Under the pieces are notes generated by a model. It saw only the letters and a list, made by a program, of their open reading frames with translations. It was not told where the DNA came from and searched no databases. This document shows, piece by piece, positions 20,474 to 57,737 of a stretch of DNA of 64,000 nucleotides. The position numbers and the translations under genes were made by a program. Position 1 is the stretch's first letter. Every line of letters begins with the position of its first letter. The stretch lies in IMG/VR virus record IMGVR_UViG_3300046733_001096, positions 14,947-78,946 of that record. The stretch is one strand, 5' to 3'. The DNA comes from a virus.

Positions 20474-20502
20474 TTTATATAGTGATTCGTTTAAGATGTC
20501 AA
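20474..20502 (-). promoter_or_regulatory. sigma70 promoter with embedded CGAATCA
   Basis: TTGACA-tcttaaaCGAATCActa-TATAAA, 17-nt spacer. Confidence 0.8.
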
Positions 20503-20527
20503 GTACTAATTAAGGTAATCATGCTTT

Positions 20528-20866
20528 TTAATCATATTGATCTAACAAATTTGTTTTATCTTCTGTGTATCCTTTAGAAGGATTAACATCATCTGCTCCA
20601 GGTAATGGTTCTTTCTGGTCTACAATTACTTCCCATTGCTCAGACCATTTCGCATTGATATCATATAACCGCTGTGTGAATAGTGGATCGGTATCTGCTA
20701 TAATTGCATCAGCAGGACATTCCGGTTCACAAACGCCACAATCAATGCATTCATCTGGATTGATTACTAACATTTCTTCACCTTCATAAAAGCAATCTAC
20801 TGGACAGACTTCTACACAATCAGTATACTTACATTTAATGCAATCCTGAGTTACTACATAGGTCAT
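20528..20866 (-). CDS. fdxA: 7Fe ferredoxin FdxA
   Basis: [26 protein letters not shown]...[12 protein letters not shown]. Confidence 0.95.
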
Positions 20867-21062
20867 CGTGGTTCTCCGTTAATTATATCGTCTATCTAAT
20901 TTGAAATTGCTATTATAGTCTATAGTAAATGAAAAAGTAGTTATTGTCAAGTACTTTTATCAAGTATCCATAATTTACTACAATAATAACATGCTGTCCA
21001 TGGTTTACTATATCATCATCCGTATATTGATTATGTAATTATGGTATCTCTCTTGTTGTAGA

Positions 21063-21755
21063 CTATCCATGTTTTTTACTTTGAACTTTCATTTTTCTTG
21101 TTTGCCATGGCACTGTATCTTCAAACATATTCACAACTTCGTCACCTTGATATGCTTCGATAAGTTTCCACCAAGGCACAATTAACAAGTGTGATTTGAG
21201 AATCATACGTTCATTTTCTGTATCATTTACAATACCATGATAGCGATTTACATTTAAAAAGTTAGGATTAAAATATTCATGTGTTTCTAATTTTTCACCG
21301 ACACTATGCGTTCCGTCTTCTTGTTCCAAATGTTCATAAAAACTTATTTCTGTTTTGCCGCGCAATGGGGTATTGAATGCACTTAGTGCTCTAAAGTGAT
21401 GTGCAGTATGCGGCTCTAAATTACCGCCAGGAGGCATCCAAATAAATGTAAAACGCATACAGTGTTTAATTTCATCCCAATTCAATGTTACACCGCAGTT
21501 ATTTGCAATGTTTGTAATCCTTTGAAATATTTCATTCCAAATTTGAATGTTACAGTCATAGCAGACATTGTAAATTTTTTGCTTGGTGCTATCCATTCCT
21601 ACCGTACCGTGATCGCCAAATTTGTCTTTAATTTTTTGGTCAAAGAAGTTATTGAGTTCGTCTTGATCTGCTAAAAATCCATCATAACCTTTGGTTTCAG
21701 CAAACCTATCCTCATATCTATATCTTAGTTCGTTCACTTTATTCCTCCATAACAA
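21063..21755 (-). CDS. DSBH/cupin oxygenase-like protein (HxA motif)
   Basis: MPPGGNLEPHTAH...NTPL...HGIVN..ERMIL; true start probably GTG near 21737. Confidence 0.6.
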   Translation of the reverse strand: MLWRNKVNELRYRYEDRFAETKGYDGFLADQDELNNFFDQKIKDKFGDHGTVGMDSTKQKIYNVCYDCNIQIWNEIFQRITNIANNCGVTLNWDEIKHCMRFTFIWMPPGGNLEPHTAHHFRALSAFNTPLRGKTEISFYEHLEQEDGTHSVGEKLETHEYFNPNFLNVNRYHGIVNDTENERMILKSHLLIVPWWKLIEAYQGDEVVNMFEDTVPWQTRKMKVQSKKHG

Positions 21756-22597
21756 TGTTCATAATCAAAACTTAATCTATACAAATAACGATCACCTTCT
21801 ACTGCATTACGTTTATGAATACTATGAAACTGATCCATAAAAATAAAATCGCCAGGCTGCCAATCGTCATGGTGCCAAATATATTTGTCTTGGAAAATAT
21901 GTGCCATTAGTTTGTCAATAATAAGTTCTTTATCCAACTTCTCTTCTGGTTTGTCTCTTAACCACATCTCTCTAATATAATGAAATGTAAAATATAATCC
22001 TTCGTCCCCATCGTATGGATGCGTATATACCAAAGGCTTTGTTACGCCATATTTAAAATCTCTTGTGGCACCTTGAAACATTTTAAGTTCTTTATCGTCT
22101 TTGTCTAAGTCATAGAATGTTCCATTTTCAAATTTAAATGTACAATCTATTTGCTTATAGAAATTTTTATCTTCATCACATAAATCTTTGTATGCTTGTC
22201 TTGTGTCACAAAAACTAGTTACACTATTTTCGCCTGGTCTGACACAGTAAAGAGCCACACAGCATTCTTTACCACTTTTCCTGCCATTGCCATTACTATG
22301 CCAGTCTAATTCTTTGTCTGCAAAGATACCAATCTTGTCGCCATCTTTGCGTTCGTTTGTTACTCTAAACAAACCAGGATAATCTGGGTGCATAAAAAAT
22401 TGATTTGGTTTAAGTACATTGCCAATTAATTCACATACTCTTAGTATACCAGATTCATCTAGATTTTGATTTCTAACGAGTACTACATTATCTTTTACAA
22501 TGTTTTTACCCCAATCTCTAATTTCTGAGTCACTCATTGTGTTAAAGTCTACGTTATATTGCACAGCATCCATTTGCATTAATTCTCTTCTCCTCAA
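21734..22597 (-). CDS. TauD/TfdA family dioxygenase
   Basis: VVLVRNQ, WHSN, TSFCD...AY, PLV.THP, W.PGD..MD...IHKR. Confidence 0.85.
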   Translation of the reverse strand: MRRRELMQMDAVQYNVDFNTMSDSEIRDWGKNIVKDNVVLVRNQNLDESGILRVCELIGNVLKPNQFFMHPDYPGLFRVTNERKDGDKIGIFADKELDWHSNGNGRKSGKECCVALYCVRPGENSVTSFCDTRQAYKDLCDEDKNFYKQIDCTFKFENGTFYDLDKDDKELKMFQGATRDFKYGVTKPLVYTHPYDGDEGLYFTFHYIREMWLRDKPEEKLDKELIIDKLMAHIFQDKYIWHHDDWQPGDFIFMDQFHSIHKRNAVEGDRYLYRLSFDYEHCYGGIK

Positions 22598-22602
22598 TTT
22601 AT

Positions 22603-23097
22603 TTATGATAATATTATACTAACTGCATTTTCTACTGTGATATACTCTGTAGTGGATATATTAGGATACTTTTGTAATATGCGTTCAGTTCCTACATATC
22701 CAAAATGAGTATATTTTAAATTTAAAGGTGTGTCTAGATTAATCAAATCATTGTGCAATACACGTAATGATTTTTTTTGTATTTGATATTCTAGTAAATG
22801 TTCGTAGTTTTTTAATATAGTTTCATCTTCTGCTACATTACTACCAACATTAATTATTGTTTTGTTAGTATCTTTAAATGCATGGAACAAATCTAATAAC
22901 ATATAAGTTTGTCCAAACCCATCATGTGCATTGTTTATAAAAACATCAACGTCATTGCATTGTTTAATAATACGTTTTCTGTCAATACGGTTATTAATGT
23001 CGTAGCTAGTACTTTTACTAAATCCAATAAAGTTTACAACTGATTCAGATATAGCTTTTCCTATACCCGATGTATGTCCTGTTATTGCGTATTTCAT
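22603..23097 (-). CDS. short-chain dehydrogenase/reductase (minimal)
   Basis: AITGHTSGIG, DVFINNA, IINVGS, YxxxK (YQIQK). Confidence 0.8.
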   Translation of the reverse strand: MKYAITGHTSGIGKAISESVVNFIGFSKSTSYDINNRIDRKRIIKQCNDVDVFINNAHDGFGQTYMLLDLFHAFKDTNKTIINVGSNVAEDETILKNYEHLLEYQIQKKSLRVLHNDLINLDTPLNLKYTHFGYVGTERILQKYPNISTTEYITVENAVSIILS

Positions 23098-23672
23098 CTA
23101 TCACCTAATATTGTAACTACTAAATGTAATCTTTCATCCGTACTACCGTTAAATGCAGTATGAGGAACAACTGTATTTGTCCAATACCATTGATTTTGCT
23201 TTAGATGTTTACTTTCGTTTTCGATTACCATATAACACCCGTCTTGTGTTTTTATTGGATAATGTAATCTTGGAGTGTTATCGTTATGCCATGTTAAACA
23301 AGTCTTTGGTCTAGAATTCATTATTCGTATTCTACCAACTTTGTATTTTTTAGTTATACTATTGTATACATCTTCGAACAATGAATCTTTAAATCCTGTA
23401 CAAAGTACTTCAAAACTATCATCTTTCAAAGGAACTTCTCTACGAGGTACTATAATTTTTCCGTGTTCAGTTGTGTAAGAGTTGTCCCAATCTAAAAATA
23501 AACTTCCTCTTCCTGTTAGGCAATTTGACGGATCGTCTTTGGTTGCATTTAAACAAATTTGATCTTTGTCATTTTTATACCACCAAATCTTTTTTTCGTT
23601 GAGTAGTTTTAAAAACTCTGTATGCAAATCATATACAGGAAGATCGTTAAGTTCGACAAAATTCATTTGCAT
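23094..23672 (-). CDS. aspartyl/asparaginyl beta-hydroxylase-like 2OG-Fe(II) oxygenase
   Basis: RIRIM..WHND..RLHYPI...PHTAFN...RLHLV. Confidence 0.75.
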   Translation of the reverse strand: MQMNFVELNDLPVYDLHTEFLKLLNEKKIWWYKNDKDQICLNATKDDPSNCLTGRGSLFLDWDNSYTTEHGKIIVPRREVPLKDDSFEVLCTGFKDSLFEDVYNSITKKYKVGRIRIMNSRPKTCLTWHNDNTPRLHYPIKTQDGCYMVIENESKHLKQNQWYWTNTVVPHTAFNGSTDERLHLVVTILGDR

Positions 23673-24403
23673 TAGTTCTTTTCTCCTACTAGTATTTTAT
23701 TTGGAGTTTCACGGTCACTGTTAACATAATCTCTCCAAAGTGTTGCGTTTTCAAGTTCTTGTTCATATTCTTCTTGTGTATATTTGCCAATACTAAAGTT
23801 ACCATCTAAGTCCCAAACGTCTGCTACAAAATGCCATCTATCAGTATTACTTCTATTTAAAACATTGTGGTATGGATGTACATATGCAAGATAACTATTT
23901 CCCTCTTCAAGTATGTAACTTTCGTTCCCATGAATAAAATCAGTGCCTGCATCTGTTATAATAGGAATATGGAATCTATAAAAGTTACCATCAGTATGCT
24001 TTTTAATTTCTCCACTTGGATGAATATATGATAGTCTTGCTCTTCTAGGATTCATATTTTTTTCATGTAGAAAATCTAAGATTTCTTTAAAATATCCAGT
24101 ACATGCACTTGTTTCTATACTATAGTCTAACATGTGATAAATTTTATGTTGCCTAGCATAGTCTAAATTAAAATATACTTTCGGATCAGGATCTGTCATA
24201 TCTTGTTCATCATATCGCGGATATTGTATTTCTACATTAAAATTGAATCCGCTTTGCAAAGAACCGTCTTGACTAGATAATGCAATACCATGTAATCCAC
24301 CATCTCTTTGTTCGTTAACATTGTTATACTCTAATATACGATACAGTTCAGACTTTAATCTATCTTTGTTAAACTTCCAATCATTTTTTACCACATGAGT
24401 CAA
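23672..24403 (-). CDS. aspartyl/asparaginyl beta-hydroxylase-like 2OG-Fe(II) oxygenase
   Basis: RARLS..IKKHTD..RFHIPI...HNVLN...RWHFV.D. Confidence 0.75.
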   Translation of the reverse strand: MTHVVKNDWKFNKDRLKSELYRILEYNNVNEQRDGGLHGIALSSQDGSLQSGFNFNVEIQYPRYDEQDMTDPDPKVYFNLDYARQHKIYHMLDYSIETSACTGYFKEILDFLHEKNMNPRRARLSYIHPSGEIKKHTDGNFYRFHIPIITDAGTDFIHGNESYILEEGNSYLAYVHPYHNVLNRSNTDRWHFVADVWDLDGNFSIGKYTQEEYEQELENATLWRDYVNSDRETPNKILVGEKN

Positions 24404-25059
24404 ATCAGCAACCTTTCTTTGTTTGGTAAATTATCATAATCCACTCCAAATATTAAAACGATTCTAGTGTTATCGCTACTGTTTGTTACTCTATGTAACC
24501 AACCTGTATTAACAAAATAGCTTTTACCTCTTTGCATATCCAAACTAATTTCTTCGGTTTTTGTTTTCCATTGGAACAAACTTCCGGCTGTATTAACAGG
24601 TATTTGTACTCTACACAACACACTTGTATCAGTATCTATATGATAGTTTAGTTCATTGCCTCCATGCATAACACTTATACGTGCTCTATAGGGTGCGTTA
24701 AATTTATCTTTAAGGTATTGTTGTATAGCAGTTGTTTTTAAATCATCTCTCCAACTGTTATAATTTTTTTCATCAATTTCACTGTCCGCATTGTTATCTA
24801 GTTGCTGCAATAGTATTTGACTGTATGTTTCACTAGCAGTAAATGCACTTTTAACATCACAATGTTGTGATATCTGATAATTGTCACCGCCCAAATCATT
24901 ACCTGTGTAGTTATTGGCAATTTCCAATATCTCATCTAACACTGATTCGGGAACGTTATCTGTTACTTGTCCGTGAGTTTGCATCTGATGCCTACGTGGT
25001 CCATTTTTACCACTTACTCTGCTTCTTCTTGTATCGTGTATAAGGCAATTATCGGTCAT
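24400..25059 (-). CDS. aspartyl/asparaginyl beta-hydroxylase-like 2OG-Fe(II) oxygenase
   Basis: RARIS..YHID..RVQIPV...NTGWLHRVTN..RIVLI. Confidence 0.75.
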   Translation of the reverse strand: MTDNCLIHDTRRSRVSGKNGPRRHQMQTHGQVTDNVPESVLDEILEIANNYTGNDLGGDNYQISQHCDVKSAFTASETYSQILLQQLDNNADSEIDEKNYNSWRDDLKTTAIQQYLKDKFNAPYRARISVMHGGNELNYHIDTDTSVLCRVQIPVNTAGSLFQWKTKTEEISLDMQRGKSYFVNTGWLHRVTNSSDNTRIVLIFGVDYDNLPNKERLLI

Positions 25060-25639
25060 AATTTTCCTTCCATTTTTGAATACTTATACTTTTTAAAGGC
25101 AGGCTATAATTATTAGAACAAATAACTTGCCAACTTGCAGGATCATCGTCCTGTGGATAAGTTTGATACAGTCCTTCTAAGACTTTCCATTCATTTTGTT
25201 TCTTATATTTATTGTTTAGTTTTTCGGCTAACAATGCCAACGTTCCTCGTCTACGTTGAAACTCCACACTGAAAAATAATCTGGTAATATTATTTTGTTT
25301 TGCCCATTCTAATTGTGGATCTAACATTAGTGTTGCTGGTGTTTCAGTATCTCTTTCATAATTCATATTTTTACGTCTGTATTGTGGATTGTAATATGTT
25401 CTAGTTAGTAATCTTGCACAACCTTCTGGAAACATATGAGTTTGTACACAACTCATAGCAATCATTTCATCATTATCTTCTACTAGGAAAGTCCATAGTG
25501 GATATTTTTTATATCGGTTTGGTATGCTCCATGCTAGATTTGGATTGAACCAATCTTTATTTCTATCATTATTTGCATAAAATTTCTTACAGTAATGTAA
25601 GAATTCCAACTCATAATTTTCTAATGTAAGTATTTTCAT
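25049..25639 (-). CDS. putative GNAT-fold acyltransferase
   Basis: IAMSCV...ARLLTRTYYNPQYRR...QLEWAK...LFFS. Confidence 0.5.
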   Translation of the reverse strand: MKILTLENYELEFLHYCKKFYANNDRNKDWFNPNLAWSIPNRYKKYPLWTFLVEDNDEMIAMSCVQTHMFPEGCARLLTRTYYNPQYRRKNMNYERDTETPATLMLDPQLEWAKQNNITRLFFSVEFQRRRGTLALLAEKLNNKYKKQNEWKVLEGLYQTYPQDDDPASWQVICSNNYSLPLKSISIQKWKENYDR

Positions 25640-26295
25640 TTTTTAACAAACGCAGGATCAAGCCATTCGTTTAATGTATCAGGTCTAGAAACTACTACAA
25701 TATAATCTGCGTTGGCTTTAAGTTTGCTATATGCGTCAGTCAACTGGCCTTTCCATGGAGCACCTACGCAGAGTGTAATCTTTTCTTGTGGATCAGGATC
25801 AATACTGTGAGCATGACTTCCATCTAATACGTAACTATCATAGTTTCCTGGCATGTAAACTTTGTTTAGTTTTTTATCTAAAAAATATAGTTTATTAATA
25901 GCACCATTTAGCACTAGTCTATATTTGTCCTGCAATGTACCAATTTCTTCTTTTGTACTGTCTAAATGTGTATGTAATCCTGTATTAGGAGCAGTTCGTA
26001 GAATTGTAACTCTACCCGGAGGCTCCATCCATGGAAATATTTTTTCTTCTAATACATGTTGCATAACAGGACATTGATTGCCGGCTGACGTATAATTAAA
26101 TTCACCGTTTGTAGTATTATGATTGGGGTCCCTACCACCTAGTCTACCACCACCGTTCCATATTGCAATCATTCTGCAACCTCTGAATTCATTGTAGTGG
26201 TGCACATCATCAGAAAGTGCAAGCACTTCATCAAGCATTGCTTGTTTCTCTTCTTTAGTTACACCTATGTCAACTGCACCAAACGTAAATTTCAT
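25636..26295 (-). CDS. DSBH oxygenase-like protein
   Basis: RVTIL...HTHLD...KYRLVL...DGSHAHSI...KITLC. Confidence 0.6.
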   Translation of the reverse strand: MKFTFGAVDIGVTKEEKQAMLDEVLALSDDVHHYNEFRGCRMIAIWNGGGRLGGRDPNHNTTNGEFNYTSAGNQCPVMQHVLEEKIFPWMEPPGRVTILRTAPNTGLHTHLDSTKEEIGTLQDKYRLVLNGAINKLYFLDKKLNKVYMPGNYDSYVLDGSHAHSIDPDPQEKITLCVGAPWKGQLTDAYSKLKANADYIVVVSRPDTLNEWLDPAFVKK

Positions 26296-26303
26296 GTTGC
26301 CTC

Positions 26304-27026
26304 TTAATTAGTTTTGATTAATTTAATAAACCATTTAGTTGGATCAAACTGCCACCATTCTTGTCCAATAGCCCAACTGCCTGCCCGTCTGTGATGATTT
26401 TTGTGCCAACCTTCACCTGCTGTTAAGATATTTGCTATCCAACTATTATTAGGTTGAGCACCTCTGTGTCCTAGTATATTAAGTATTCCATATCCATGAA
26501 ATGCTAGTACAACCGGTATTGCATATCCAAATATCATAAACAATGGATCAATTGCTGTAAACAATATAATAATGGCAATATTTAAATAAAAGTAATATTT
26601 GTGGAACCATCTTAGGATTTTGTCTTGTAATAAACGTTTAATGAATTTGCGTTTAATTTTAAAACCATATCCCCATGTGTTTACATATACTGCCCACATA
26701 CCTTTGACACTGTGACTGTGTGGGTCTAGTTCTGTATCACTATGAGCATGATGTTGTCTGTGTGTAGCAGCCCAAGTCATTGCAGGACCAGCACCAGCAA
26801 ACATACCTAATATATTTACTGCCCACGGATACCATTTGCCTGTTTTAAAACTATTGTGCGAATAGTATCGGTGATAACCACCACTAATTGCTACAATTGC
26901 GATAATATACCACCAAAATAAAGATATAGAAAACATCCACAATTCACCATATAAAAATGCTGGAATCAACATTACGTGACAAAATGTATGATTTATAAGT
27001 AATTTTGTTGTATTTTCCATATACAC
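26304..27026 (-). CDS. membrane fatty-acid desaturase (Delta9-like)
   Basis: Three His boxes HRYYSH, HRQHH, HKNHH; DPHS; GEGWH. Confidence 0.9.
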   Translation of the reverse strand: MYMENTTKLLINHTFCHVMLIPAFLYGELWMFSISLFWWYIIAIVAISGGYHRYYSHNSFKTGKWYPWAVNILGMFAGAGPAMTWAATHRQHHAHSDTELDPHSHSVKGMWAVYVNTWGYGFKIKRKFIKRLLQDKILRWFHKYYFYLNIAIIILFTAIDPLFMIFGYAIPVVLAFHGYGILNILGHRGAQPNNSWIANILTAGEGWHKNHHRRAGSWAIGQEWWQFDPTKWFIKLIKTN

Positions 27027-27029
27027 TTC

Positions 27030-27401
27030 CTAATAATTCATTTGTGATTCAGTTGAGTTGTATTCTGCCTCTGTTATAGTCTCGATGTCACTTATTACTA
27101 AATATTCATCAAATGATTGCAATAACATTGTTAGATCATAATGCATAGCAGATGCGTGATTCTCATATCGGTAGTAATTGGTCTGGACAACCCTACAACC
27201 GTCATCTATTCTGGTAGTTTTTCTATTATCACTAGTTTCAAGCTCTTCTTCATCAGCTAGCCGATCTAACAGTTTAGTGAACTTAGGTAAACCAATTTTT
27301 TCTTCAAACCACACCAGGTATTGGTCATGTGTTTTTCCATCGGGGTAATCTATTGTAACTGTAAATTTATATGCCATTTTTGTTTTCCTTTTGTTCATCA
27401 T
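27030..27401 (-). CDS. hypothetical protein (start probably MAYKF)
   Basis: Operonic ORF. Confidence 0.6.
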   Translation of the reverse strand: MMNKRKTKMAYKFTVTIDYPDGKTHDQYLVWFEEKIGLPKFTKLLDRLADEEELETSDNRKTTRIDDGCRVVQTNYYRYENHASAMHYDLTMLLQSFDEYLVISDIETITEAEYNSTESQMNY

Positions 27402-28235: not shown

Positions 28236-28269
28236 ATTGTTTTCCTTTGTGTTTATGTGTGTGTGTAGT

Positions 28270-28535
28270 GTAACTATTCTGTTGCTAGGTCAGTTACCAA
28301 CCCCCACGTGCTTAAATTAAGCCGCTAATGCCATTTCTGGCGCATAATTTGCGTTTGCAATTATAAAGTTTGTTCGCGGTAACGGCGCTTACATCCCGGT
28401 AACTCCATTCATCTATCTTGTCAGTCGATCCTAGTTCAGCCCCATCAAAAGCACACTTATCTAAATGTGTTTATGGTGGAGCTGCGCGGTACTGCCCCGC
28501 GGTCCTGTCCAATCATCAAATCACTTCAACGTTAC
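28270..28535 (-). ncRNA. ssrA: circularly permuted two-piece tmRNA, alphaproteobacterial type; tag ANANYAPEMALAA at 28358-28317
   Basis: Acceptor piece comes first (T arm CGCGG-GGCAGTA-CCGCG, CAGCTCCACCA ending 28474), then a hairpin spacer, then GGGGCTG at 28443 forming the acceptor stem with G3-U70; tag frame ends LAA-stop. Ends approximate. Confidence 0.93.
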
Positions 28536-28541
28536 ATTCTA

Positions 28542-28570
28542 TTTATAACATATTTTAATAGCGTTGTCAA
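28542..28570 (-). promoter_or_regulatory. tmRNA promoter TTGACA-N17-TATAAA, whose -10 also reads as late TATAAATA
   Basis: Direct sequence. Confidence 0.75.
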
Positions 28571-28573
28571 TAG

Positions 28574-28602
28574 AAAAGGCAGTGCGTCGATTCACTGCCT
28601 TC
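28574..28602 (-). terminator. intrinsic terminator
   Basis: AAGGCAGTG...CACTGCCTT followed by Ts. Confidence 0.7.
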
Positions 28603-29579: not shown

Positions 29580-29678
29580 ATTATTTCTCCTCTGCTTGAT
29601 GGCTTTACCCCATCGCTCACGTTAAAGATAGGCTCGACGTTGCCTACACATTATTTATAACATATTATAATGGTAATT

Positions 29679-30257
29679 TCAAGTGTTAAATTTATTCTTA
29701 ATAATTTCAACCACTCTGTCAGATAGAACTATCTCATAATGATTTCTATCTACTTCTGCATATTCTATATCGTCACGGCAAGTCATACTTTTACGTGTGA
29801 CAATACCATCATTCTTACCTGATATCCATGGTACATCGCCAACTGTTGTGACTACCTGAAGCCAATTACACGAAATATCAATATTACGACTGCCTCTGAT
29901 AAATCTACTATGTGTTGTAATGTCACTAAACATTTCATAGCCTGAAAAGAACTTCATAGAAGCACCCCACACAGCAATCTCACTGCCATTAAAAGGTGTT
30001 GCCAAACTAACAACATTCTTTATTGTATCAAATTCACTTTGTAAATAAGTTGCATATACACCGCCAAGACTATGTGCTATTACAAAAAATTCATCGTCTA
30101 TATTATTTAAAGTTTCCATCATTATAGCAAGATTATCAATTGCTGCAGTATATTTACTATAATTCAAATATATAGGATCTTTACAATTCAACGATTTCTG
30201 AATGAAGGCAAAACTTCGTTCACTTGCAGTTGCACCATGTATATACACTATTCTCAT
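29679..30257 (-). CDS. alpha/beta hydrolase
   Basis: YIHG, AHSLGG, LATPFNGS, NDGIV, NHYE. Confidence 0.85.
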   Translation of the reverse strand: MRIVYIHGATASERSFAFIQKSLNCKDPIYLNYSKYTAAIDNLAIMMETLNNIDDEFFVIAHSLGGVYATYLQSEFDTIKNVVSLATPFNGSEIAVWGASMKFFSGYEMFSDITTHSRFIRGSRNIDISCNWLQVVTTVGDVPWISGKNDGIVTRKSMTCRDDIEYAEVDRNHYEIVLSDRVVEIIKNKFNT

Positions 30258-30957: not shown

Positions 30958-31003
30958 TTCTGTTCCTCACTTATATAGATTATTATATCTATTTATAAGC
31001 AAT

Positions 31004-31832: not shown

Positions 31833-31979
31833 TATTATATTTCCTTTTAAACAAAAAATATGAGCAGGTATTAACTGCTCATACTACTCTACTTATACTA
31901 ATATAATACATTTTTGCTTAATTATCAAGAGGGTATGAAACTAATACTGACGATTGTGTTATTTATATCACACCTTAAA

Positions 31980-34508: not shown

Positions 34509-34703
34509 ATGACACTAAACCTATTTAGTGCCCTAGCAAATCTTTTTGGAGGATTTCCTAATAGGGCAACAAAACGCTCAGACTTAATGACTTGGGCAAA
34601 AACAGAGTATGCACGTGATTGGGAATTTGCTTACCAATACATGCTTGATAACAGTGGCAAAGCGCCATCACACAGACACACACAAGGAATAACACATGAT
34701 TAA
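34509..34703 (+). CDS. small hypothetical protein
   Basis: SD GGAG; DLMTWAKTEY..DW.FAY motif. Confidence 0.7.
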   Translation: MTLNLFSALANLFGGFPNRATKRSDLMTWAKTEYARDWEFAYQYMLDNSGKAPSHRHTQGITHD

Positions 34704-34932
34704 TAAACTAGTAATAGCATACAAAAATTTTAGAACCGAAATGGATTATAGAAAGAAAGTTCGTACAACAATCAAAGAACTGTCTGCACTTTCAAACTAT
34801 GAACTAAATGATATCGGAATTTCACGTGGTGAAATATATAATATTGCAATCACATCATATAATAAACCAGAACGTCTAGTAGTTGAAGATATTGAAATAA
34901 CAGTAAATGAAAATCTAAGAGGGGCAGTATAA
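34696..34932 (+). CDS. DUF1127 (YjiS-like) small protein
   Basis: RTTIKELSALSNYELNDIGISRGEI. Confidence 0.88.
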   Translation: MINKLVIAYKNFRTEMDYRKKVRTTIKELSALSNYELNDIGISRGEIYNIAITSYNKPERLVVEDIEITVNENLRGAV

Positions 34933-35108
34933 TGACTACATTAGTAATGGAATATACGGTAAATCCTTTTTGGAATGCTCTTAAAGTATTTGGTCGTGGC
35001 ACATGGAACTTCTTAGAGTCAGTGGGATATGCAAGAGCCGCTGCTGAACTACATCGTCAAGGCTTCTACAAAGAAGCTAAAGACTTGATGTTAATGGACA
35101 GGAGTTGA
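34932..35108 (+). CDS. small protein (58 aa)
   Basis: Manual translation ...[26 protein letters not shown]; TAATG coupling. Confidence 0.75.
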
Positions 35109-35112
35109 TACA

Positions 35113-35337
35113 ATGACAGGTGATATAGCAACTATGGGCGCAATGATTGGCGCCGGACTAGCAACATTAGGAATGGGTGGTGCTGCAATCGCAGTAGGAA
35201 TTATTGTCGGTAGTGTATTTAAAGTTATGCCTAAAAAGCCTGACAACGGAACAATGTTTATTGGTGTTGCATTTGCAGAAGCATTAGGTATCTTTGCATT
35301 CTTAGTAGCACTACTACTAATGTTTGCAGTTGTATAA
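35113..35337 (+). CDS. atpE: F0F1 ATP synthase subunit c homolog with altered loop
   Basis: IGAGLA..GMGGAA..VG and [27 protein letters not shown]. Confidence 0.9.
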
Positions 35338-35558
35338 TGGTTGGTGAACAACATATGGAAATATCAGCACAAGTAGTGCAGAAGTTAGGTTTCTATATGT
35401 TTGTGATAATGACTTCACTACTAATAATATGCATAGGATTTGGTTTCTATGCAGTAATTGATAAGTTCAAAGAACCAAATTGGAAAGAGGCATGCCTTGA
35501 AAAGGGTGGAGTACCAGTTCAACTAGATAAATCAATGTTTGATTGTAAAGGAATATAA
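35337..35558 (+). CDS. small membrane protein
   Basis: One TM helix, C-terminal CLEKGG...DC. Confidence 0.65.
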   Translation: MVGEQHMEISAQVVQKLGFYMFVIMTSLLIICIGFGFYAVIDKFKEPNWKEACLEKGGVPVQLDKSMFDCKGI

Positions 35559-35559
35559 T

Positions 35560-35694
35560 ATGTTAAAAAGATTTGTAAAAGCAATGGAATACCGTTCATA
35601 CTGTATGGCAATTCGTGAATTACGCAACAAAGGCTTATATAAAGAAGCACAACGTGTCAGTGAATATAAGCACAATATGTATCCTACTACTTAG
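35560..35694 (+). CDS. small protein (44 aa)
   Basis: Manual translation MLKRFVKAMEYRSYCMAIRELRNKGLYKEAQRVSEYKHNMYPTT. Confidence 0.65.
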   Translation: MLKRFVKAMEYRSYCMAIRELRNKGLYKEAQRVSEYKHNMYPTT

Positions 35695-35960: not shown

Positions 35961-36168
35961 CTAACGTATCCTCAAATTTTTCTTCTATTAATTTAATATG
36001 CTTGCATTTTTTAAATGCCGGGCAATCACAAGTAAACCCCTTATCAGTCATTTTAATTGTATATATATTACCCTTGCTGCCTGATACATACCATTCAGTA
36101 TCAACTGCCCAATGACCCTTAGTATTAATCAGGTCACTGGGAAATATACGTGGTCCATACTTTGCCAT
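35947..36168 (-). CDS. SWIM zinc-finger protein
   Basis: GSKGNIY...CDCPAF..CKHI. Confidence 0.8.
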   Translation of the reverse strand: MAKYGPRIFPSDLINTKGHWAVDTEWYVSGSKGNIYTIKMTDKGFTCDCPAFKKCKHIKLIEEKFEDTLDEFL

Positions 36169-36509
36169 TATATAGTTTCAAATCCAAAGTTTGCTACAAC
36201 TGAACGATTGCCATCAGCATCTTCAATAATATTTCCAACTGAAATACTAGACATTTTTCCAAACCGCTCAATACGATCTTCTGGTCCAATATTTCCTACT
36301 TCAAAAACATGATCAAGGCTGTCAGCAATAATGTTTGCAACATGAGTATAACATTCATCAAATTTCATAGCAGCCTCTTTAAAATTTCCAAATGTGGCAT
36401 CTGCATATGCAGTTGCTTTTTCGTGACAATTCCAGCCCTCTTTATTAACTAGTTCTACTAGTTTTTCATCTAATTGAATTTGATAAACTTTGAAAACTTG
36501 AACTGACAT
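36168..36509 (-). CDS. hypothetical early protein
   Basis: LDHVFE..N...SSISVGNII; GANTC promoter upstream. Confidence 0.7.
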   Translation of the reverse strand: MSVQVFKVYQIQLDEKLVELVNKEGWNCHEKATAYADATFGNFKEAAMKFDECYTHVANIIADSLDHVFEVGNIGPEDRIERFGKMSSISVGNIIEDADGNRSVVANFGFETI

Positions 36510-36540
36510 ATGAGATTTCCTTGTTGCTATCTATACATTC

Positions 36541-36569
36541 TTTATAGACTGATTCGTTTGAATTGTCAA
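36541..36569 (-). promoter_or_regulatory. sigma70 promoter with embedded CGAATCA
   Basis: TTGACA-attcaaaCGAATCAgtc-TATAAA. Confidence 0.8.
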
Positions 36570-36592
36570 GTATTATTTCACACTTTTAAATA

Positions 36593-36778
36593 TTAAGCCT
36601 CGTCAATTAGAGTAAAATATTCCTCTTCATCTTTGCTCAAGTAAATCGCATCAAAAAGATTTTCTGGCACAACGCCTAGACCAACTGCACGACGAGTTTG
36701 ACAATAGTGTGCATAATCTTCACACTCTTTAATTTCTGGTAGATATGGGTGTGATGAAACGATGATTTCTTGTGTCAT
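36593..36778 (-). CDS. hypothetical early protein
   Basis: Own promoter at 36810-36838. Confidence 0.65.
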   Translation of the reverse strand: MTQEIIVSSHPYLPEIKECEDYAHYCQTRRAVGLGVVPENLFDAIYLSKDEEEYFTLIDEA

Positions 36779-36809
36779 GTGATTCTCTTTCTTGTTAACT
36801 TATACATAC

Positions 36810-36838
36810 TTTATATCAGTCGTATGTTAGGTTGTCAA
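36810..36838 (-). promoter_or_regulatory. sigma70 promoter of the same family, lacking GANTC
   Basis: TTGACA-acctaacatacgactga-TATAAA-gtatGTATAAGTT. Confidence 0.75.
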
Positions 36839-37086
36839 GCAAAAAGTGGTTGCATTGTTTCGAAAACTTTGTTGTAAGCATTAACTTCTGCTTCATAGTA
36901 TTCATAAAAATCTGAGTCGTCAGTAAAATGTGCATGGTCACAATTATAACTGGCACAATGTTCATCCCATACACGATTCATTGCTTCCATGCCTTCAAGC
37001 AAATCGCCACGACCATAAGAAGTCATTACTGTTTTAGCATCTTCAAAGGTAGTATCAAACTTATAAAAACTAGGGATTCTAAACAT
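36835..37086 (-). CDS. hypothetical early protein
   Basis: SD GGAG; GANTC promoter upstream. Confidence 0.7.
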   Translation of the reverse strand: MFRIPSFYKFDTTFEDAKTVMTSYGRGDLLEGMEAMNRVWDEHCASYNCDHAHFTDDSDFYEYYEAEVNAYNKVFETMQPLFA

Positions 37087-37119
37087 ATTACATTCTCCGT
37101 TTTCTCAACTTATACATTC

Positions 37120-37148
37120 TTTATAAAGTGATTCGGTTAGAATGTCAA
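37120..37148 (-). promoter_or_regulatory. sigma70 promoter with embedded CGAATCA
   Basis: TTGACA-ttctaacCGAATCActt-TATAAA. Confidence 0.8.
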
Positions 37149-37980: not shown

Positions 37981-38040
37981 TTTTTATCCGCTTCATCAAT
38001 TTATAGTTATATTATATTATACACGATTCTAAAGTATTTG

Positions 38041-38718
38041 TCAACTTCTTTGATCTTTAATCCAGTTCTTGGCCTGTGGCATAGATGGGGACTTAACTAA
38101 AAATTTATCAATTGCTCTATCAACTTCTAAGAAATTTGATTTACGTTCTGGATCTTCTAGGCCACCAGAGTTATCAACAATATGAAAATTTCCTGCGCCG
38201 AATAACTGCTGAAACTTCATAAGATTCTGCTGTACTGCTTGCCACATCTTAGTCACTTGTTGTCTTGGTAAACTTCTAGGACGATTTTCATTGCGCTCTT
38301 GTGCGACATCTTCACTTGTATTAACAAATAACATCATTGTTTCATAGCCAAGTTCTTTTAATTGTTCATTTGCTTTTTGAACTTTTGCTACATCTTTGCC
38401 AGTGCCATCAATAATAAGTCCTAGACGGCCTTCGATATGCAATTGTTGTTTATTCTTTGTAATCTGTTTTGCACGATTACGAATTTCTTGTCCTTCATCA
38501 GAATAGATATCATCTGGAGTCAATTCTTTTCCTGCTTTATCCATCATATATTCATAAATGTCATCTGAATTTACTGTTCTGAGACCAGTTCCTTTGAGCA
38601 TCTTATTAGCAACAAAACTTTTGCCACTGCCAGGGCCGCCTGCCAGAAATACGGCTTTGAAAATATGAGGATCATTCACACCCTCTTCAATTGATTGTAG
38701 GATTTCATTGACACGCAT
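38041..38718 (-). CDS. zeta-toxin-like P-loop kinase, putative packaged protein
   Basis: MRVNEIL..IEEG leader; AGGPGSGKS, VNSD, IIDGTG, RN..R. Confidence 0.75.
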   Translation of the reverse strand: MRVNEILQSIEEGVNDPHIFKAVFLAGGPGSGKSFVANKMLKGTGLRTVNSDDIYEYMMDKAGKELTPDDIYSDEGQEIRNRAKQITKNKQQLHIEGRLGLIIDGTGKDVAKVQKANEQLKELGYETMMLFVNTSEDVAQERNENRPRSLPRQQVTKMWQAVQQNLMKFQQLFGAGNFHIVDNSGGLEDPERKSNFLEVDRAIDKFLVKSPSMPQAKNWIKDQRS

Positions 38719-50651: not shown

Positions 50652-50680
50652 AAAAAAAGACCCAGCATAGCCGGGTCTTT
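50652..50680 (-). terminator. intrinsic terminator
   Basis: AAAGACCCGGC-TAT-GCTGGGTC followed by T7. Confidence 0.8.
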
Positions 50681-50706
50681 ATACTCTAATAGATAGAAGT
50701 TATGTA

Positions 50707-50958: not shown

Positions 50959-51037
50959 TTTATTTCTCCATTAAAATTTATTGAGACTTTATCATCTCTA
51001 TACTTTTATTTATCCTTTTTACGCCAACAATTGTATG

Positions 51038-51901
51038 TTACTTTCTTCTAGATTGAAATTTAGTTAGACCAGATTTTGTTGGTCTATCATATGTTGTTTT
51101 TGCAGCACGTTTGCCCAATGCTTCTGCACCTTTAACTAAAGCATACGCTCCACCAATCACAGCGGCGCCTTTAGCAGCACCTTTAACAATAGGGCGATTC
51201 CAAATCTTTTTCTTCTTATCGTTTCTATCATTAACCATATAGTTACCACGCTTTTGAAAAGAAAGTAATGGTTGTGTAAACTCACTACGCATTGCTTTAG
51301 AACGCATATATTGAACACTACGTGTTACCACTAGTGCACGTTGATTTTGATTCAAATTATCCCAATCTCCAACCAATCTACGCATTGATTTCAACATACT
51401 ATCTTGAATATTTAATTGGCGTTGGAATCTAAGTAGCATTTTTTGCTCATATCCTGAATCAGTTTTATTGTTGCCAATATGAGTTAGATATTGCACTAAA
51501 TCTGCTTTTTTGAGTGATAATCTTTTCTTAGCGATTACATCTTTTTCATTACTATTATCTTGGTCTTTGCCCATCAAACGATTTAAAGAAATATATAGAT
51601 CCGTTCCACTTGTTCTAAATGTATCAAAATTTCTAAATGATCCAGTACGTTTGGCATATTCACTTGCCAATGGCGCATAATCATAATCTTTATTGAAAAT
51701 ATTTAATAACATTAAATACATGAATGAAATTTCAGCAGCATCATCTAAATTAACTTCGCTTGCTATCTTTTTATTTCTAAACAAACGGCTTTCAGTTAGT
51801 TCATGTACTAATTGTAAACTGTTGTCATTGTTATCATCAATGTCGTGACCGCCATATATTTTTGCCCATTGACTTGCTGTATACTTTTTATCATCTGCCA
51901 T
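51038..51901 (-). CDS. hypothetical protein (putative virion-associated)
   Basis: ELTESRLFR...YA..T..F..FRTSGTDLY. Confidence 0.6.
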   Translation of the reverse strand: MADDKKYTASQWAKIYGGHDIDDNNDNSLQLVHELTESRLFRNKKIASEVNLDDAAEISFMYLMLLNIFNKDYDYAPLASEYAKRTGSFRNFDTFRTSGTDLYISLNRLMGKDQDNSNEKDVIAKKRLSLKKADLVQYLTHIGNNKTDSGYEQKMLLRFQRQLNIQDSMLKSMRRLVGDWDNLNQNQRALVVTRSVQYMRSKAMRSEFTQPLLSFQKRGNYMVNDRNDKKKKIWNRPIVKGAAKGAAVIGGAYALVKGAEALGKRAAKTTYDRPTKSGLTKFQSRRK

Positions 51902-51904
51902 GCT

Positions 51905-52099
51905 TTATTTCCTTTTATCTAGTATATCCTTCATGACATTTGTTGCTGTATTGGTAAAGCAGCGCGGTGCCACACTATGTATTAATAATGCTGGCACCAA
52001 TAATTGCAATTTTACTGCAGCACTTAGCGCAGTAGCCATATGTTGCAATCCACTTTCATTAACACTTTCTAAATGCTCTTTACATTTTTTACTAAACAT
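51905..52099 (-). CDS. small hypothetical protein
   Basis: EHL..VNES..QHM..AL...LIH..P..F...A. Confidence 0.65.
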   Translation of the reverse strand: MFSKKCKEHLESVNESGLQHMATALSAAVKLQLLVPALLIHSVAPRCFTNTATNVMKDILDKRK

Positions 52100-52103
52100 T
52101 ATT

Positions 52104-54152: not shown

Positions 54153-54367
54153 TTCTTATCCCCAAATGGATTTTCACCAGTTAGTTGTGGTCTTGCAAAC
54201 CATAACTTAAACCACTCATCCGTTCCAGGTTGTATATTATTCTTTTTCTGATACTCACCTTTTTCTTGGCCAGTATGTGAGATATTCTCCTGATGTTGTG
54301 ATACATCATAAGGCTTATATATACCTGCTAGAACCTTTAGTTGGTGTAACTGTTGTTCAAAATCCAT
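54149..54367 (-). CDS. hypothetical protein
   Basis: LK.LAGI...IQPGTDEWFKLWF..P..TGE. Confidence 0.7.
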   Translation of the reverse strand: MDFEQQLHQLKVLAGIYKPYDVSQHQENISHTGQEKGEYQKKNNIQPGTDEWFKLWFARPQLTGENPFGDKK

Positions 54368-54603
54368 TATTTGTCTACACTATTCATGCCTCGCTTAAAT
54401 TTACGCGGGTCTTTTGTGCGGATACTATTAACTAAACGTTTTTGTAAATCATTTGCAGTATCTTCATCAAAATTATTTTCAATGAATTCCATTAAATGTA
54501 TTGCACCTGCAATAAGGTGTTCGCCCTTTTGTTCAACCAGACGTTTATTATCTTTATCATAAGACATGCTGTTTAGTTCTTCAAATAGACTTTTACGTTT
54601 CAT
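54367..54603 (-). CDS. hypothetical protein
   Basis: SLFEEL...L.KRL.NSIR..DP.KF.RG; late motif upstream. Confidence 0.7.
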   Translation of the reverse strand: MKRKSLFEELNSMSYDKDNKRLVEQKGEHLIAGAIHLMEFIENNFDEDTANDLQKRLVNSIRTKDPRKFKRGMNSVDK

Positions 54604-54628
54604 AACAATTCTCCGTTAAGTGTATTTA

Positions 54629-56050
54629 TCAAGTTTCATCAAAAGCGGAACGACTTTTAGTTTTAAGCATTGCTCTAAGTGAACTTGCAGCCTGTGTCTT
54701 TTCAAATACGGGGGTATCATCATCTTCTGATTTATTTAGAGTTGTTTTCTTTCTAAGTTGATCAACAACACTTGTAGTACTTCCACTATTGCTTGGGGTA
54801 CCAACACCATTACTATCTTGATCTGGATCATCTGAAATGCGTAAACTATCTCTATCAAATAATAAACTTACTTTACTACCTACACCAGAAGATGAACGTG
54901 TTTTCAGTAGTTGTAATTGATATTGACCACGTTCACGCATTGCATTTGATGTAAAGATACCGATAACATTATCCGCTGTTTGAATTTTACTAATACCACC
55001 AGCAATATGAGAATGATCAAATTCAATTTCTTCAACCGCACTACGATTTAACTGCGATGCAGTCACAGTAACAGTCTGAGTTTCCATAGAAAAGTTACGC
55101 ATTTCTTCTGTAACATATTTGTCTTTGGTGAAGGTATCACCTGCAGGTACTTTTTTAGTTGCGGGCATTAACAAATCTAGATAGTCAATACACATACAAT
55201 CAACTGTTTTGCCAGTTTGTATCTGAAGTTCTTTCAAGTAAGACCGTAGATCATTGATTGTTGAACCACTCGGAAGATACTTTATACGTAGCATACCGGA
55301 CTGTTTGCCTTTCGCTTTAACTTGTAGTTCAACATCGTCTAGGTCTTTAAAAATGCGTCTAGTACTGCGGTCCGTCTGCATTGCATACATACGCATACTT
55401 GAAAGTTCCTCGGATAACTCCAATGTGAAGTAGACACAATTCAACCCAGCCTCCGCCCAATTCAGGCTCATATTTTGCATAAAAAGGGATTTACCTGCCC
55501 CGGAGCCGCCTGCAAAAATCGTAATCTCCCCACGATTAATGCCACCATATAACTTATCATCAAGAGATTTCCAACCAGTCGTAATCTGACCATTGTTGTC
55601 TTTCATCCGTTCAAGCACACCTCTAGGATCAGCAAAATAATCTGTTCCTAAACTACGTGCCAGTCCAATTTGAACAGCCTCTTTGATTCTAAGTTCTACT
55701 TCACCGTACTTGCCAGTCTCAAGTAAATCTGTGCTATCGATAATAGCCTTCTCAATAGCCTTGTGACGGCAAAATGTCTCAAACTCATCTACAAACCATT
55801 CTTCATGCTGGGTTATGTTGTCCAACTTCTCAATATCTTGCCCCGTTTCTGCCTTAATAATTGCAGTATCTGGCAGTGTAGAATAATCTTCACTATAATC
55901 AATAAGTTGTTTGACCACAGGACGAACACTGCGGTCGAAATATTCAGGCTTGATAATCCCTCTGATCCTAGTATATAGTTCAGGATTAGTAACCATGAAT
56001 TGAATGAATAGTTTCTGTAAGTCTGGGCTATAATTTTTTACTTCTGACAT
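54629..56050 (-). CDS. replicative DNA helicase (DnaB/gp41-like, SF4)
   Basis: TGW..LD..LYGG, GGSGAGKS, TLELSE, IDYLDL, ASQLNR, KIQTAD, KTR. Confidence 0.93.
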   Translation of the reverse strand: MSEVKNYSPDLQKLFIQFMVTNPELYTRIRGIIKPEYFDRSVRPVVKQLIDYSEDYSTLPDTAIIKAETGQDIEKLDNITQHEEWFVDEFETFCRHKAIEKAIIDSTDLLETGKYGEVELRIKEAVQIGLARSLGTDYFADPRGVLERMKDNNGQITTGWKSLDDKLYGGINRGEITIFAGGSGAGKSLFMQNMSLNWAEAGLNCVYFTLELSEELSSMRMYAMQTDRSTRRIFKDLDDVELQVKAKGKQSGMLRIKYLPSGSTINDLRSYLKELQIQTGKTVDCMCIDYLDLLMPATKKVPAGDTFTKDKYVTEEMRNFSMETQTVTVTASQLNRSAVEEIEFDHSHIAGGISKIQTADNVIGIFTSNAMRERGQYQLQLLKTRSSSGVGSKVSLLFDRDSLRISDDPDQDSNGVGTPSNSGSTTSVVDQLRKKTTLNKSEDDDTPVFEKTQAASSLRAMLKTKSRSAFDET

Positions 56051-56056
56051 TTGTAT

Positions 56057-56085
56057 ATTATATCATTTCTCTGTATAAAGGTCAA
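56057..56085 (-). promoter_or_regulatory. sigma70 promoter, 6 nt from -10 to ATG (leaderless)
   Basis: TTGACC-N17-TATAAT-atacaa-ATG. Confidence 0.7.
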
Positions 56086-56090
56086 CACTT

Positions 56091-56957
56091 TTAATCAAAC
56101 AGTGCTGGATTTAAATTATTTTCTTCTTTTTTACGCAATCGATCACGCTTCCAACCTTCACGCTGCTTTTCTCTTTTGGCAAGTTCTTCAGCAGATGGTG
56201 CTATAGGATCTGGGTCAGGTAATACTTCTACTTCATCAAGTGTTGGTAAGAAAGTATCATATGCGTTTTTATTCATTTCAAACCCAACAAATTTTCTACC
56301 ATATCGCAATGCAGTTCTAGGCGTAGTAAAGCCACCACAAAATGGATCCATTACTATATCACCACGATTACTACTATATAATATAAACTTTTCAATCCAA
56401 TCTTCATTTAGTTGGTTCTTGTTTTTAATTTGTCCAGGTTTATGACTACGCGGCATTGTCTGTACTGTCAATCGGTCATGATAACTATCTTTACTATCAG
56501 TGTAATAAGCATTGGTATTAAATGTACGCTTTTGCTTGCTTGTTTCTGGCTTTGACCAAAACAAAACATGATAGTGACTACTTACAAATTTGTTTTTTGT
56601 TGATACACCAAAACTATATTGTGCAATAATATGATTAATTTCTTTTAAGTCAGTTGAGTGTAATGCATTAAGTATATGATGCAAATTTGTATAACCACTG
56701 ACAATATACATGCTACCGCCCGGTCGTAAAACTCTTGCACATTCTGTGATCCATTGCTTAGAAAAATCACCATATGTTTCTAATGGAACTTCTACATAGC
56801 CAGGAACTACATTGCCTTCATCACGATTATAATGTGTGTCAAGTTTATCACCCTCAATACCATACGGAGGATCAGTAAATATCAAATCTACTGTTCCATC
56901 TTCTATATGTTCACTGATGCCACTAGTGCAATCTTGATTATAAACTGTATGATTCAT
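56091..56957 (-). CDS. DNA N6-adenine/N4-cytosine methyltransferase (beta class)
   Basis: DLIFTDPPY precedes VMDPFCGG..T. Confidence 0.9.
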   Translation of the reverse strand: MNHTVYNQDCTSGISEHIEDGTVDLIFTDPPYGIEGDKLDTHYNRDEGNVVPGYVEVPLETYGDFSKQWITECARVLRPGGSMYIVSGYTNLHHILNALHSTDLKEINHIIAQYSFGVSTKNKFVSSHYHVLFWSKPETSKQKRTFNTNAYYTDSKDSYHDRLTVQTMPRSHKPGQIKNKNQLNEDWIEKFILYSSNRGDIVMDPFCGGFTTPRTALRYGRKFVGFEMNKNAYDTFLPTLDEVEVLPDPDPIAPSAEELAKREKQREGWKRDRLRKKEENNLNPALFD

Positions 56958-57004
56958 TTACTCTCCTTAATATTTGATAATTATACTATAAATCAAATAA
57001 AATA

Positions 57005-57706
57005 TCAAGCATTTTCTATACTTTGTTTCACTGATTCAATTACCGCACGTTGTGCTTTACGTTTTTCATCTTTGTAATTAACTTCAACTAGTTGCGTATT
57101 TGAAATTTCTTCTGGTCGAAAAATAAACTCTAGTGCATCAAATGGAATATGTGCTTCAATACCGTCAGAAACACCAACCAAATACGGTTTTACATCCTCT
57201 GAACTAATAATTGCAATTGCATTTTGCTGACCAAGCATATAAAAATCAGCAGGGTTTTCAATTGTAGTGCCTTTGTTTTCGCCTAAACTATTTTTTAATT
57301 TTACTTTAACTGTCTTTTTTTGATTGTTACGTTTGGTAAACATACCGTCAGTCATATATTTAAATTCGATATCTAAATTTTCTACGATATCTCTATGGTC
57401 CCTACCGATATCATCAACCCAAACTAGTCTCCCATCTGTTGCTGCTTCAACTGTTTGTTCGATTATATCTGCTTTATCAAATCTATCTTTGCGGTCATTC
57501 AGTTGTGATCCTAAACTATATACAACAGAACTATATACTTGTGAATTAATTATTGATTTTAGTTGAGTAGCATACGTAGAAGTTTTCATTAAAGTGTTTC
57601 CTAATATTTCAAAATGTCCCCAATAGTCTTCTGGTTCTACTTGAGTTTCGTCAATGTCATTAAAGATATCCAACAAATCGGCTCTCTGTTTGTTTAACTT
57701 ATACAT
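57005..57706 (-). CDS. putative PD-(D/E)XK restriction-endonuclease-like protein (true start probably downstream of 57706)
   Basis: GRDH...DIEFK motif; adjacent to the methyltransferase. Confidence 0.45.
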   Translation of the reverse strand: MYKLNKQRADLLDIFNDIDETQVEPEDYWGHFEILGNTLMKTSTYATQLKSIINSQVYSSVVYSLGSQLNDRKDRFDKADIIEQTVEAATDGRLVWVDDIGRDHRDIVENLDIEFKYMTDGMFTKRNNQKKTVKVKLKNSLGENKGTTIENPADFYMLGQQNAIAIISSEDVKPYLVGVSDGIEAHIPFDALEFIFRPEEISNTQLVEVNYKDEKRKAQRAVIESVKQSIENA

Positions 57707-57708
57707 TC

Positions 57709-57737
57709 TTTATATAATGATTCGTATTGTTTGTCAA
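57709..57737 (-). promoter_or_regulatory. sigma70 promoter with embedded CGAATCA
   Basis: TTGACA-aacaataCGAATCAtta-TATAAA. Confidence 0.8.

Follow-up and report, generated by a model that had tools for sequence, protein, structure and literature searches.

We analyzed a 64,000-nucleotide (nt) stretch of viral DNA (the window; positions 14,947 to 78,946 of IMG/VR virus record IMGVR_UViG_3300046733_001096, which is 78,946 bp long, with a CheckV completeness of 31%). Our subject is a class of promoters, here called class I, in which the heptamer CGAATCA occupies a fixed place in the spacer between two sigma70-type hexamers. Nearly all genes of the window lie on its minus strand (hereafter the gene strand), and the G+C content of the DNA is 34 to 39%. 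The encoded DnaB-like helicase shares 52% identity with its counterpart in the Pseudomonas jumbo phage PA5oct and 49% with those of the Agrobacterium phage Atu_ph07 and the Sinorhizobium phage Phosso, and the ClpX protein is 55% identical to Phosso ClpX. Comparison with cultured phages gave no match for 3 kb of the window (megablast) and only short chance matches for one 52-nt promoter (blastn), and the stretch was found in seawater metagenomes of many studies. Judging from its genes, the source is most likely an uncultured marine jumbo phage with an alphaproteobacterial host, probably a member of the Rhodobacterales. This phage and many relatives carry, about 20 bases upstream of the predicted transcription start of their strongest host-type promoters, the word that is best for GcrA, a methylation-reading sigma cofactor of Alphaproteobacteria, which suggests that they may switch on their first genes via the cell-cycle epigenetic system of the host.

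The class-I pattern TTGACA-N7-CGAATCA-N3-TATAAA has four exact matches in the window (no mismatches, all on the minus strand), against 0.07 expected, and none of 100 shuffles reached four copies. The promoters lie at 20474-20502 (-35 hexamer TTGACA at 20497-20502, box CGAATCA at 20483-20489, and -10 hexamer TATAAA at 20474-20479), 36541-36569 (box at 36550-36556), 37120-37148 (box at 37129-37135), and 57709-57737 (box at 57718-57724). An earlier, sequence-only reading had singled out these four sites, followed by a GTATA(A)G element, and all of them proved exact. Its count of four stands for the window but proved too narrow beyond it, as a fifth exact copy lies on the same contig, 7.4 kb upstream of the window (window coordinates -7414 to -7386), and the cassette is found throughout a viral clade. 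Transcription is predicted to start at about 20467, 36534, 37113, and 57702, respectively. The first three promoters would drive open reading frames (ORFs) of 129 amino acids (aa; 20054-20443), 113 aa (36168-36509), and 83 aa (36835-37086; the MFRIP... gene), and the fourth heads a unit that contains a DNA methyltransferase gene.

In each copy the spacer is 17 nt long and the two hexamers match the sigma70 consensus at 11 of 12 positions, so that class-I promoters look like sigma70-type promoters for the host RNA polymerase, and they are presumed to be early. Because TATAAA ends in A where the consensus has T, and our sigma70 scan demands T at this last -10 position, the scan omits them. Downstream of each of the four window copies stands gaATGTATA(A/G); the short leader that comes next is A-rich, contains a ribosome-binding site, and precedes a small ORF. 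A start-site element, GTATAAGTTAG, spans -2 to about +9 (minus strand; 20459-20469, 36526-36536, 37105-37115, and 57694-57704), with a G at -6 also conserved; it could be a discriminator/initial transcribed sequence or a signal in the 5' leader. Both the element and the G at -6 are common to class-I promoters across the clade. The -35 hexamer of the 57709 promoter is immediately preceded by a hairpin with a U-run (57738-57764, minus strand; -13.9 kcal/mol, z score of -2.2), which a simple scan did not list, and this terminator-promoter arrangement was seen in many relatives.

The heptamer itself is concentrated in these promoters. CGAATCA occurs eight times on the gene strand of the whole contig, with about three expected, and five of the eight are class-I promoters; the other three lie in coding DNA without promoter features, a number that fits the expectation, so there is no depletion elsewhere. 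Two further promoters resemble class I in part, as the sequence-only reading had stated. The promoter at 38016-38044 (minus strand) has the full consensus, TTGACA-N17-TATAAT (12 of 12), with its GAATC shifted one base further downstream (AGAATCG; GAATC at 38025-38029) and without the GTATAAG element. Just upstream of it, a 225-aa protein resembling Zeta-toxin/AAA_33-type P-loop kinases is encoded at 38041-38718 (minus strand). The sibling promoter at 36810-36838 (minus strand) has the -35 hexamer, -10 hexamer, and downstream element of class I; it had been described as lacking the site, which is true of its spacer but not of its leader, where AGAATCA occurs between the ribosome-binding site and the ATG (GANTC at 36781-36785, minus strand, at about +19 to +23).

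Leader sites of this kind, in the context gaGAATCAc-ATG at about +17 to +23, were found in 32 of 146 class-I leaders (the loci L118, L120, and L128 included), compared with 3 of 83 gene starts on the contig. They fall within the published +2 to +30 window of GcrA sites and may reflect only a shared ribosome-binding-site context. A role of the leader site as a substitute for an absent spacer box was unsupported, as it occurs in 11 of 40 promoters without a spacer site and in 21 of 106 with one.

Box-less sigma70-like promoters are also present on the minus strand, at 9770-9798, 15552-15580, 29654-29682, 56057-56085, and 60725-60753, several of them with TG at -15/-14 (an extended -10 element); the one at 29654 ends in tgtTATAAA. 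We considered whether the box and the extended -10 element are alternatives and dropped this idea, because a promoter class with a 16-nt spacer carries both (CGAATCAtgcTATATT). The idea that a weak -10 hexamer requires the box was likewise unsupported, as boxed promoters also use TATATT, TACATT, and TATAGT. The T4 late-promoter word TATAAATA stands just upstream of some minus-strand genes (10803-10810, 30990-30997, and 31960-31967, minus strand); its total of 9 occurrences, 7 of them on the gene strand, shows no enrichment over the 11 expected.

The exact cassette was found at at least 114 IMG/VR loci on marine viral contigs, and many of these loci hold two to four copies. We then left the spacer free and searched five large related records (G001 to G005) for TTGACA-N17-TATAAA, with reversed patterns as controls. 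CGAATC stood at the fixed place in 10 of 13 sites in G003, 12 of 19 in G001, 3 of 5 in G004, and 5 of 8 on the contig itself, as well as in 5 of 9 sites in G002, a more distant record of 342 kb that is 92% complete. All of these sites are on the gene strand, and the reversed controls gave zero or one. In G005, also a related marine record, none of six TTGACA-N17-TATAAA sites had CGAATC at this place. The positional enrichment of GANTC in promoters, proposed by the sequence-only reading as a check, is thus borne out in four of the five related records and on the contig. G002 has in addition a second class, TTGACA-N6-CGAATCA-tgc-TATATT, in which the spacer is 16 nt long and the distance from the box to the -10 hexamer is unchanged.

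Among 53 promoters with unrelated flanks, scored only at positions that the search had not set, the box forms an island of conservation: 98% have A at -16, 85% have T at -14, and 75% each have C at -15 and A at -23, while spacer positions -29 to -24 carry almost no information. Conservation of the box equals that of the two hexamers, and the rest of the spacer is variable. Diverged relatives, collected via the downstream element alone, have GANTC in two zones, one in the spacer at offsets 11 to 16 from the first -35 base (with one exception, at 18) and the other at about +17 to +21. In the spacer zone, CGAATCA accounts for 91 heptamers and CGAATCG for 8, next to a few single variants and three flipped sites (CGATTCG twice and AGATTCG once). 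The box thus keeps the form YGATTCG when it is inverted or displaced by as much as 3 bp, so the flanking bases that define this word move together with the site. The same movement is seen among orthologous promoters: upstream of the MFRIP... gene in ten distinct contigs, GAATC has offset 14 in six (as in the window), 13 in one, 15 in two, and 11 in one, in spacers that have otherwise diverged.

It is conceivable that the box has no function and was inherited with a cassette that spreads by duplication and promoter-promoter recombination. Many copies do have long identical stretches in common, and cassettes do recombine: in contigs of two RNA studies and in the viral locus L015, the 36541 promoter is fused to the 36810 promoter (junction 36557 to 36828), and the intervening 61-aa gene is missing. 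Small early genes appear to be gained or lost by recombination at the promoter cassettes. Nevertheless, we consider functionless inheritance very improbable, as the spacer around the box has diverged freely and the box has not, as the box persists in different registers of orthologous promoters whose sequences otherwise differ, and as it is present in distant relatives with another spacer length and another -10 hexamer. Its spread, the free-spacer test, the conserved island, its movement, and the orthologous registers indicate that the box is more than inherited sequence, and this is the pattern expected of an element that selection has maintained throughout a large phage clade.

In all five copies on the contig, the box reads TGATTCG on the template strand. 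The sequence-only reading had likened this to the GcrA motif, and the likeness is in fact closer, as it is identical to the top word of the published consensus, “TGATTCG or, more broadly, YGAKTCK” (PMC4647560), and stands at the published position. With the -10 hexamer at -12 to -7 relative to a start that is predicted and not mapped, the box spans -22 to -16 and GAATC spans -21 to -17; sites of the GcrA regulon are “narrowly centered around -20” (PMC4647560), and in the complex of Wu et al. on the Caulobacter promoter PcsM, the methylated GAATC lies at -22 to -18 (PMC9976885). In that complex, the monomeric DNA-binding domain of GcrA sits on the spacer and the C-terminal domain on sigma70 region 2, with a flexible linker between them (PMC9976885). 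The sequence features of a GcrA promoter that we compared are all found here, namely, sigma70 hexamers with standard spacing, YGAKTCG/K flanks, and a site centered near -20. Moreover, the small shifts and inversions of the box would suit a tethered monomeric reader, which would tolerate them.

The geometry of the box might instead reflect an action in cis without a reader, the spacer tuning polymerase contacts or DNA shape, or methylation of GAATC directly altering sigma70/beta-prime contacts or duplex stability; in the latter case, promoters would depend on methylation with no need of GcrA. In the region of the box, sigma region 3 and the beta-prime zipper face the spacer, the box stands equally far from the -10 hexamer in promoters with 16-nt and 17-nt spacers, and a -10 hexamer without its usual final T makes a compensating element plausible. 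We regard this explanation as quite unlikely, because known spacer effects are modest and degenerate, whereas the seven bases of the box vary no more than the hexamers do, and because a rigid polymerase contact would not allow inversion or shifts of up to 3 bp.

A GcrA reading presupposes a host that has GcrA, and two genes bear on host identity. A permuted, two-piece transfer-messenger RNA (tmRNA) of the alpha type is encoded at 28267-28574 (minus strand; Rfam alpha_tmRNA, 128.9 bits), with the tag peptide ANANYAPEMALAA. Its promoter (28542-28570, minus strand) is box-less with an extended -10 element (TTGACA-N17, ending in tgt-TATAAA), and a second Rfam match, tmRNA_permuted, begins at 28535, exactly the start predicted from this promoter. 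The alpha_tmRNA model found a match in four of the five related records and, among 14 control genomes, in Caulobacter alone. BLAST of the tmRNA against 401 alphaproteobacterial genomes returned only weak partial matches, which did not refine the host.

The second gene encodes a protein like the ATP synthase c subunit (AtpE-like; 35113-35337, plus strand). It lies in a small island of plus-strand genes (34509-35694) within a minus-strand region. The cellular relatives of this protein are mostly of the Rhodobacterales type. Among the best 80, nearly all are of this type (Roseovarius, Pseudosulfitobacter, Paracoccaceae, and others; 53 to 65% identity), and a few come from metagenome-assembled genomes (MAGs) of unclassified Alphaproteobacteria or Pseudomonadota; because relatives were retrieved by shared eight-residue words and only the best 80 were listed, this evidence is supportive and not decisive. 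All five Rhodobacterales-type genomes that we examined from this comparison encode GcrA. In the one GcrA that we compared, from a Dinoroseobacter MAG, 39 of the first 45 residues are identical to the crystallized Caulobacter domain and the recognition stretch GGVTRNAVIGKVHRLGL is fully identical. The GcrA/CcrM pair is reported to be conserved in nearly all Alphaproteobacteria, and GcrA is methylation sensitive in Agrobacterium too (PMC13687562). In a study of marine alphaproteobacterial MAGs, among them Rhodobacteraceae and SAR11, nearly all had methylated GANTC or GAWTC (PMC8919816), and GAATC would therefore be a substrate either way. TTGAC-N7-9-CGAATC occurs 12 times in five Rhodobacterales genomes, compared with 6 in the control, and these numbers are too small to interpret.

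The phage may also contribute to methylation. Downstream of the 57709 promoter lies a gene for a beta-class N6/N4 DNA methyltransferase of 288 aa (56091-56957, minus strand; PF01555, 112.7 bits). Its closest solved structure is CcrM (6pbd), a distant match in the HMMER alignment (E value of 5e-20, with DPPY included). Residues 4 to 230 align to CcrM residues 15 to 248; the loop after DPPY differs, and most of the C-terminal extension of CcrM, whose chain has 366 aa, is missing. Homologues of this methyltransferase bear no specificity names. The protein is 97 to 98% identical in two close relatives and is absent from three others. The place of this gene behind a boxed promoter, with CcrM as the best solved relative of its product, is a weak supporting signal. 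Another weak signal is the mild underrepresentation of GANTC on the contig (observed/expected ratio of 0.73; all four variants below 1; GAATC at 0.58, the 5th percentile of pentamers), which is reminiscent of, though weaker than, the depletion in methylating Alphaproteobacteria. A phage-encoded gcrA, which the sequence-only reading had suggested looking for, was not found with the Pfam hidden Markov model in six records (the 79-kb contig and its five relatives, one of them 92% complete) or with tblastn on the contig.

The mechanism that we favor, with slightly better than even confidence, is that host GcrA acts on methylated boxes. The GAATC adenines would be N6-methylated by the CcrM-type enzyme of the host or, in this lineage, possibly by the phage beta-class methyltransferase. 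GcrA, bound to sigma domain 2, would ride the sigma70 holoenzyme, and its small monomeric DNA-binding domain would dock on the methylated box in the spacer. As at the Caulobacter promoter PcsM, docking would steady polymerase binding and open-complex formation, such that early phage transcription may be raised when the cell has GcrA and the DNA is marked. We can further speculate that the boxes form an epigenetic timer. GcrA-loaded polymerase would efficiently read only genomes that are newly injected and fully methylated, replication would outrun methylation and turn early promoters off without a dedicated repressor, the phage methyltransferase or late host CcrM would reset the mark before packaging, and early expression would be limited to GcrA-positive (S-phase) cells. 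This extended scenario is unlikely, and we offer it as speculation.

Several observations weigh against GcrA as the reader. The methyltransferase, and indeed any PF01555 gene, is absent from the boxed relative that is 92% complete; therefore, if methylation matters, the host enzyme must suffice in some lineages. The putative host assignment draws on only two genes, those for the tmRNA and the AtpE-like protein. With a perfect -35 hexamer, a spacer of 17 nt, and a -10 hexamer close to consensus, class-I promoters look strong unaided, so an activator may not be required. When Mascolo et al. applied a GcrA matrix to cultured phages of Alphaproteobacteria, no positional signal emerged (PMC9437464); accordingly, the case described here is either new or limited to this uncultured clade. 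The match to GcrA should also be discounted somewhat for a look-elsewhere effect, because it was spotted by a reader seeking resemblances.

Other points on this side would be equally at home with a box that is the site of another sequence-specific protein, either phage encoded or virion delivered (e.g., a shut-off repressor acting on the spacer) or a different host protein, with the likeness to the GcrA word being coincidental or convergent. The central base of the site is always A and never C (GAATC only and GACTC never), a tighter choice than the published degeneracy, in which K may be G, and the bases beside the heptamer (A at -23, C at -15, and T at -14) are fairly conserved where no GcrA requirement is known. 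The cassette is lineage specific: it was absent from isolated phages with known hosts in comparisons with cultured phages, and promoter patterns in Atu_ph07, Phosso, and PA5oct were at about chance level. Atu_ph07 and Phosso, whose hosts bear GcrA, thus lack it, and G005, whose host probably carries GcrA, has an alpha-type tmRNA yet no boxes. Furthermore, many uncharacterized small early proteins are encoded that might include such a binder. We nonetheless hold another protein to be a rather unlikely reader. A random heptamer would equal TGATTCG in either orientation only about once in 8,000 cases, and here the GcrA position matches as well. The box has no dyad symmetry and no second half-site, and a site that moves by up to 3 bp and flips with its heptamer kept fits a tethered monomer better than a fixed operator. 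In addition, promoters that fire on entry depend on host or injected proteins alone.

Marine metatranscriptome contigs include relatives of the early region, and such contigs tell neither transcript starts nor levels. In four RNA data sets, a cluster of oxygenase/desaturase genes (21453-26660) was almost uncovered and the flanking early and tmRNA regions were covered; as contig cover cannot rank expression, this is a hint only.

To our knowledge, GcrA, a methylation-reading rider of sigma70, has so far been known from host cell-cycle promoters only, and we found no published account of GcrA-type boxes in phage promoters. GcrA-dependent host promoters are accordingly the closest known systems, followed by the CtrA-box promoters of alphaproteobacterial phages. 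Class-I promoters share with the GcrA/CcrM promoters of Caulobacter crescentus, such as PcsM (Haakonsen 2015, PMC4647560; Wu 2018, PMC5887438; Wu 2023, PMC9976885), the sigma70-type architecture with one spacer GANTC near -20 and the extended word TGATTCG (YGAKTCG), present as a single copy without a dyad, as fits a monomeric reader on sigma domain 2. They differ in belonging to a phage genome of 35% G+C and not to a host chromosome and in having near-consensus AT-rich hexamers, and their box is far more uniform than the sites of the Caulobacter regulon, with GAATC only. In the “lytic deferment” model for CtrA-box phage promoters (Mascolo et al. 2022, PMC9437464), a site for a host cell-cycle master regulator likewise couples infection to cell state, but CtrA is a dimeric response regulator on TTAA-N7-TTAA and not a methylation-reading sigma cofactor. 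The CtrA box was not enriched here (3 occurrences against 2.06 expected), and none was found at class-I promoters.

Some alphaproteobacterial phages interact with the GcrA/CcrM module: a gcrA homologue in phiCbK-like Caulobacter phages and ccrM analogues in some Sinorhizobium phages are cited in PMC9437464. The present phage resembles them in encoding a beta-class adenine methyltransferase. Unlike the phiCbK-like phages, it bears sites in cis and not the factor in trans.

Promoters sensitive to Dam methylation are known from mobile elements of enterobacteria, where methylation of GATC affects Mu mom, P1 cre, and IS10 pIN directly or via OxyR/SeqA-type proteins. If class-I promoters depend on methylation, they would be similar in that adenine methylation in or beside a promoter ties its activity to replication or methylation state; those cases are single promoters, whereas the boxes described here mark a genome-wide class of presumed early promoters. 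T4 middle promoters have a MotA box in place of the -35 hexamer, with the phage proteins MotA and AsiA as its readers. There, too, a promoter class is set by an extra element upstream of the -10 hexamer and read by a sigma70-associated factor, as the candidate reader would be here, but class-I promoters have a perfect -35 hexamer, their box lies within the spacer, and the candidate reader is a host protein.

If the GcrA reading is correct, the best GcrA site is part of the main promoter class of a widespread clade of marine jumbo phages, and this would be, as far as the literature shows, the first virus to use the GcrA/CcrM module in cis. Class-I promoters would then offer a compact, strong, and natural GcrA-dependent promoter for mechanistic work, and the cassette would be a sequence signature by which uncultured phages could be assigned to alphaproteobacterial hosts. 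More broadly, infection of abundant marine Alphaproteobacteria would be tied to the cell-cycle and methylation state of the host.

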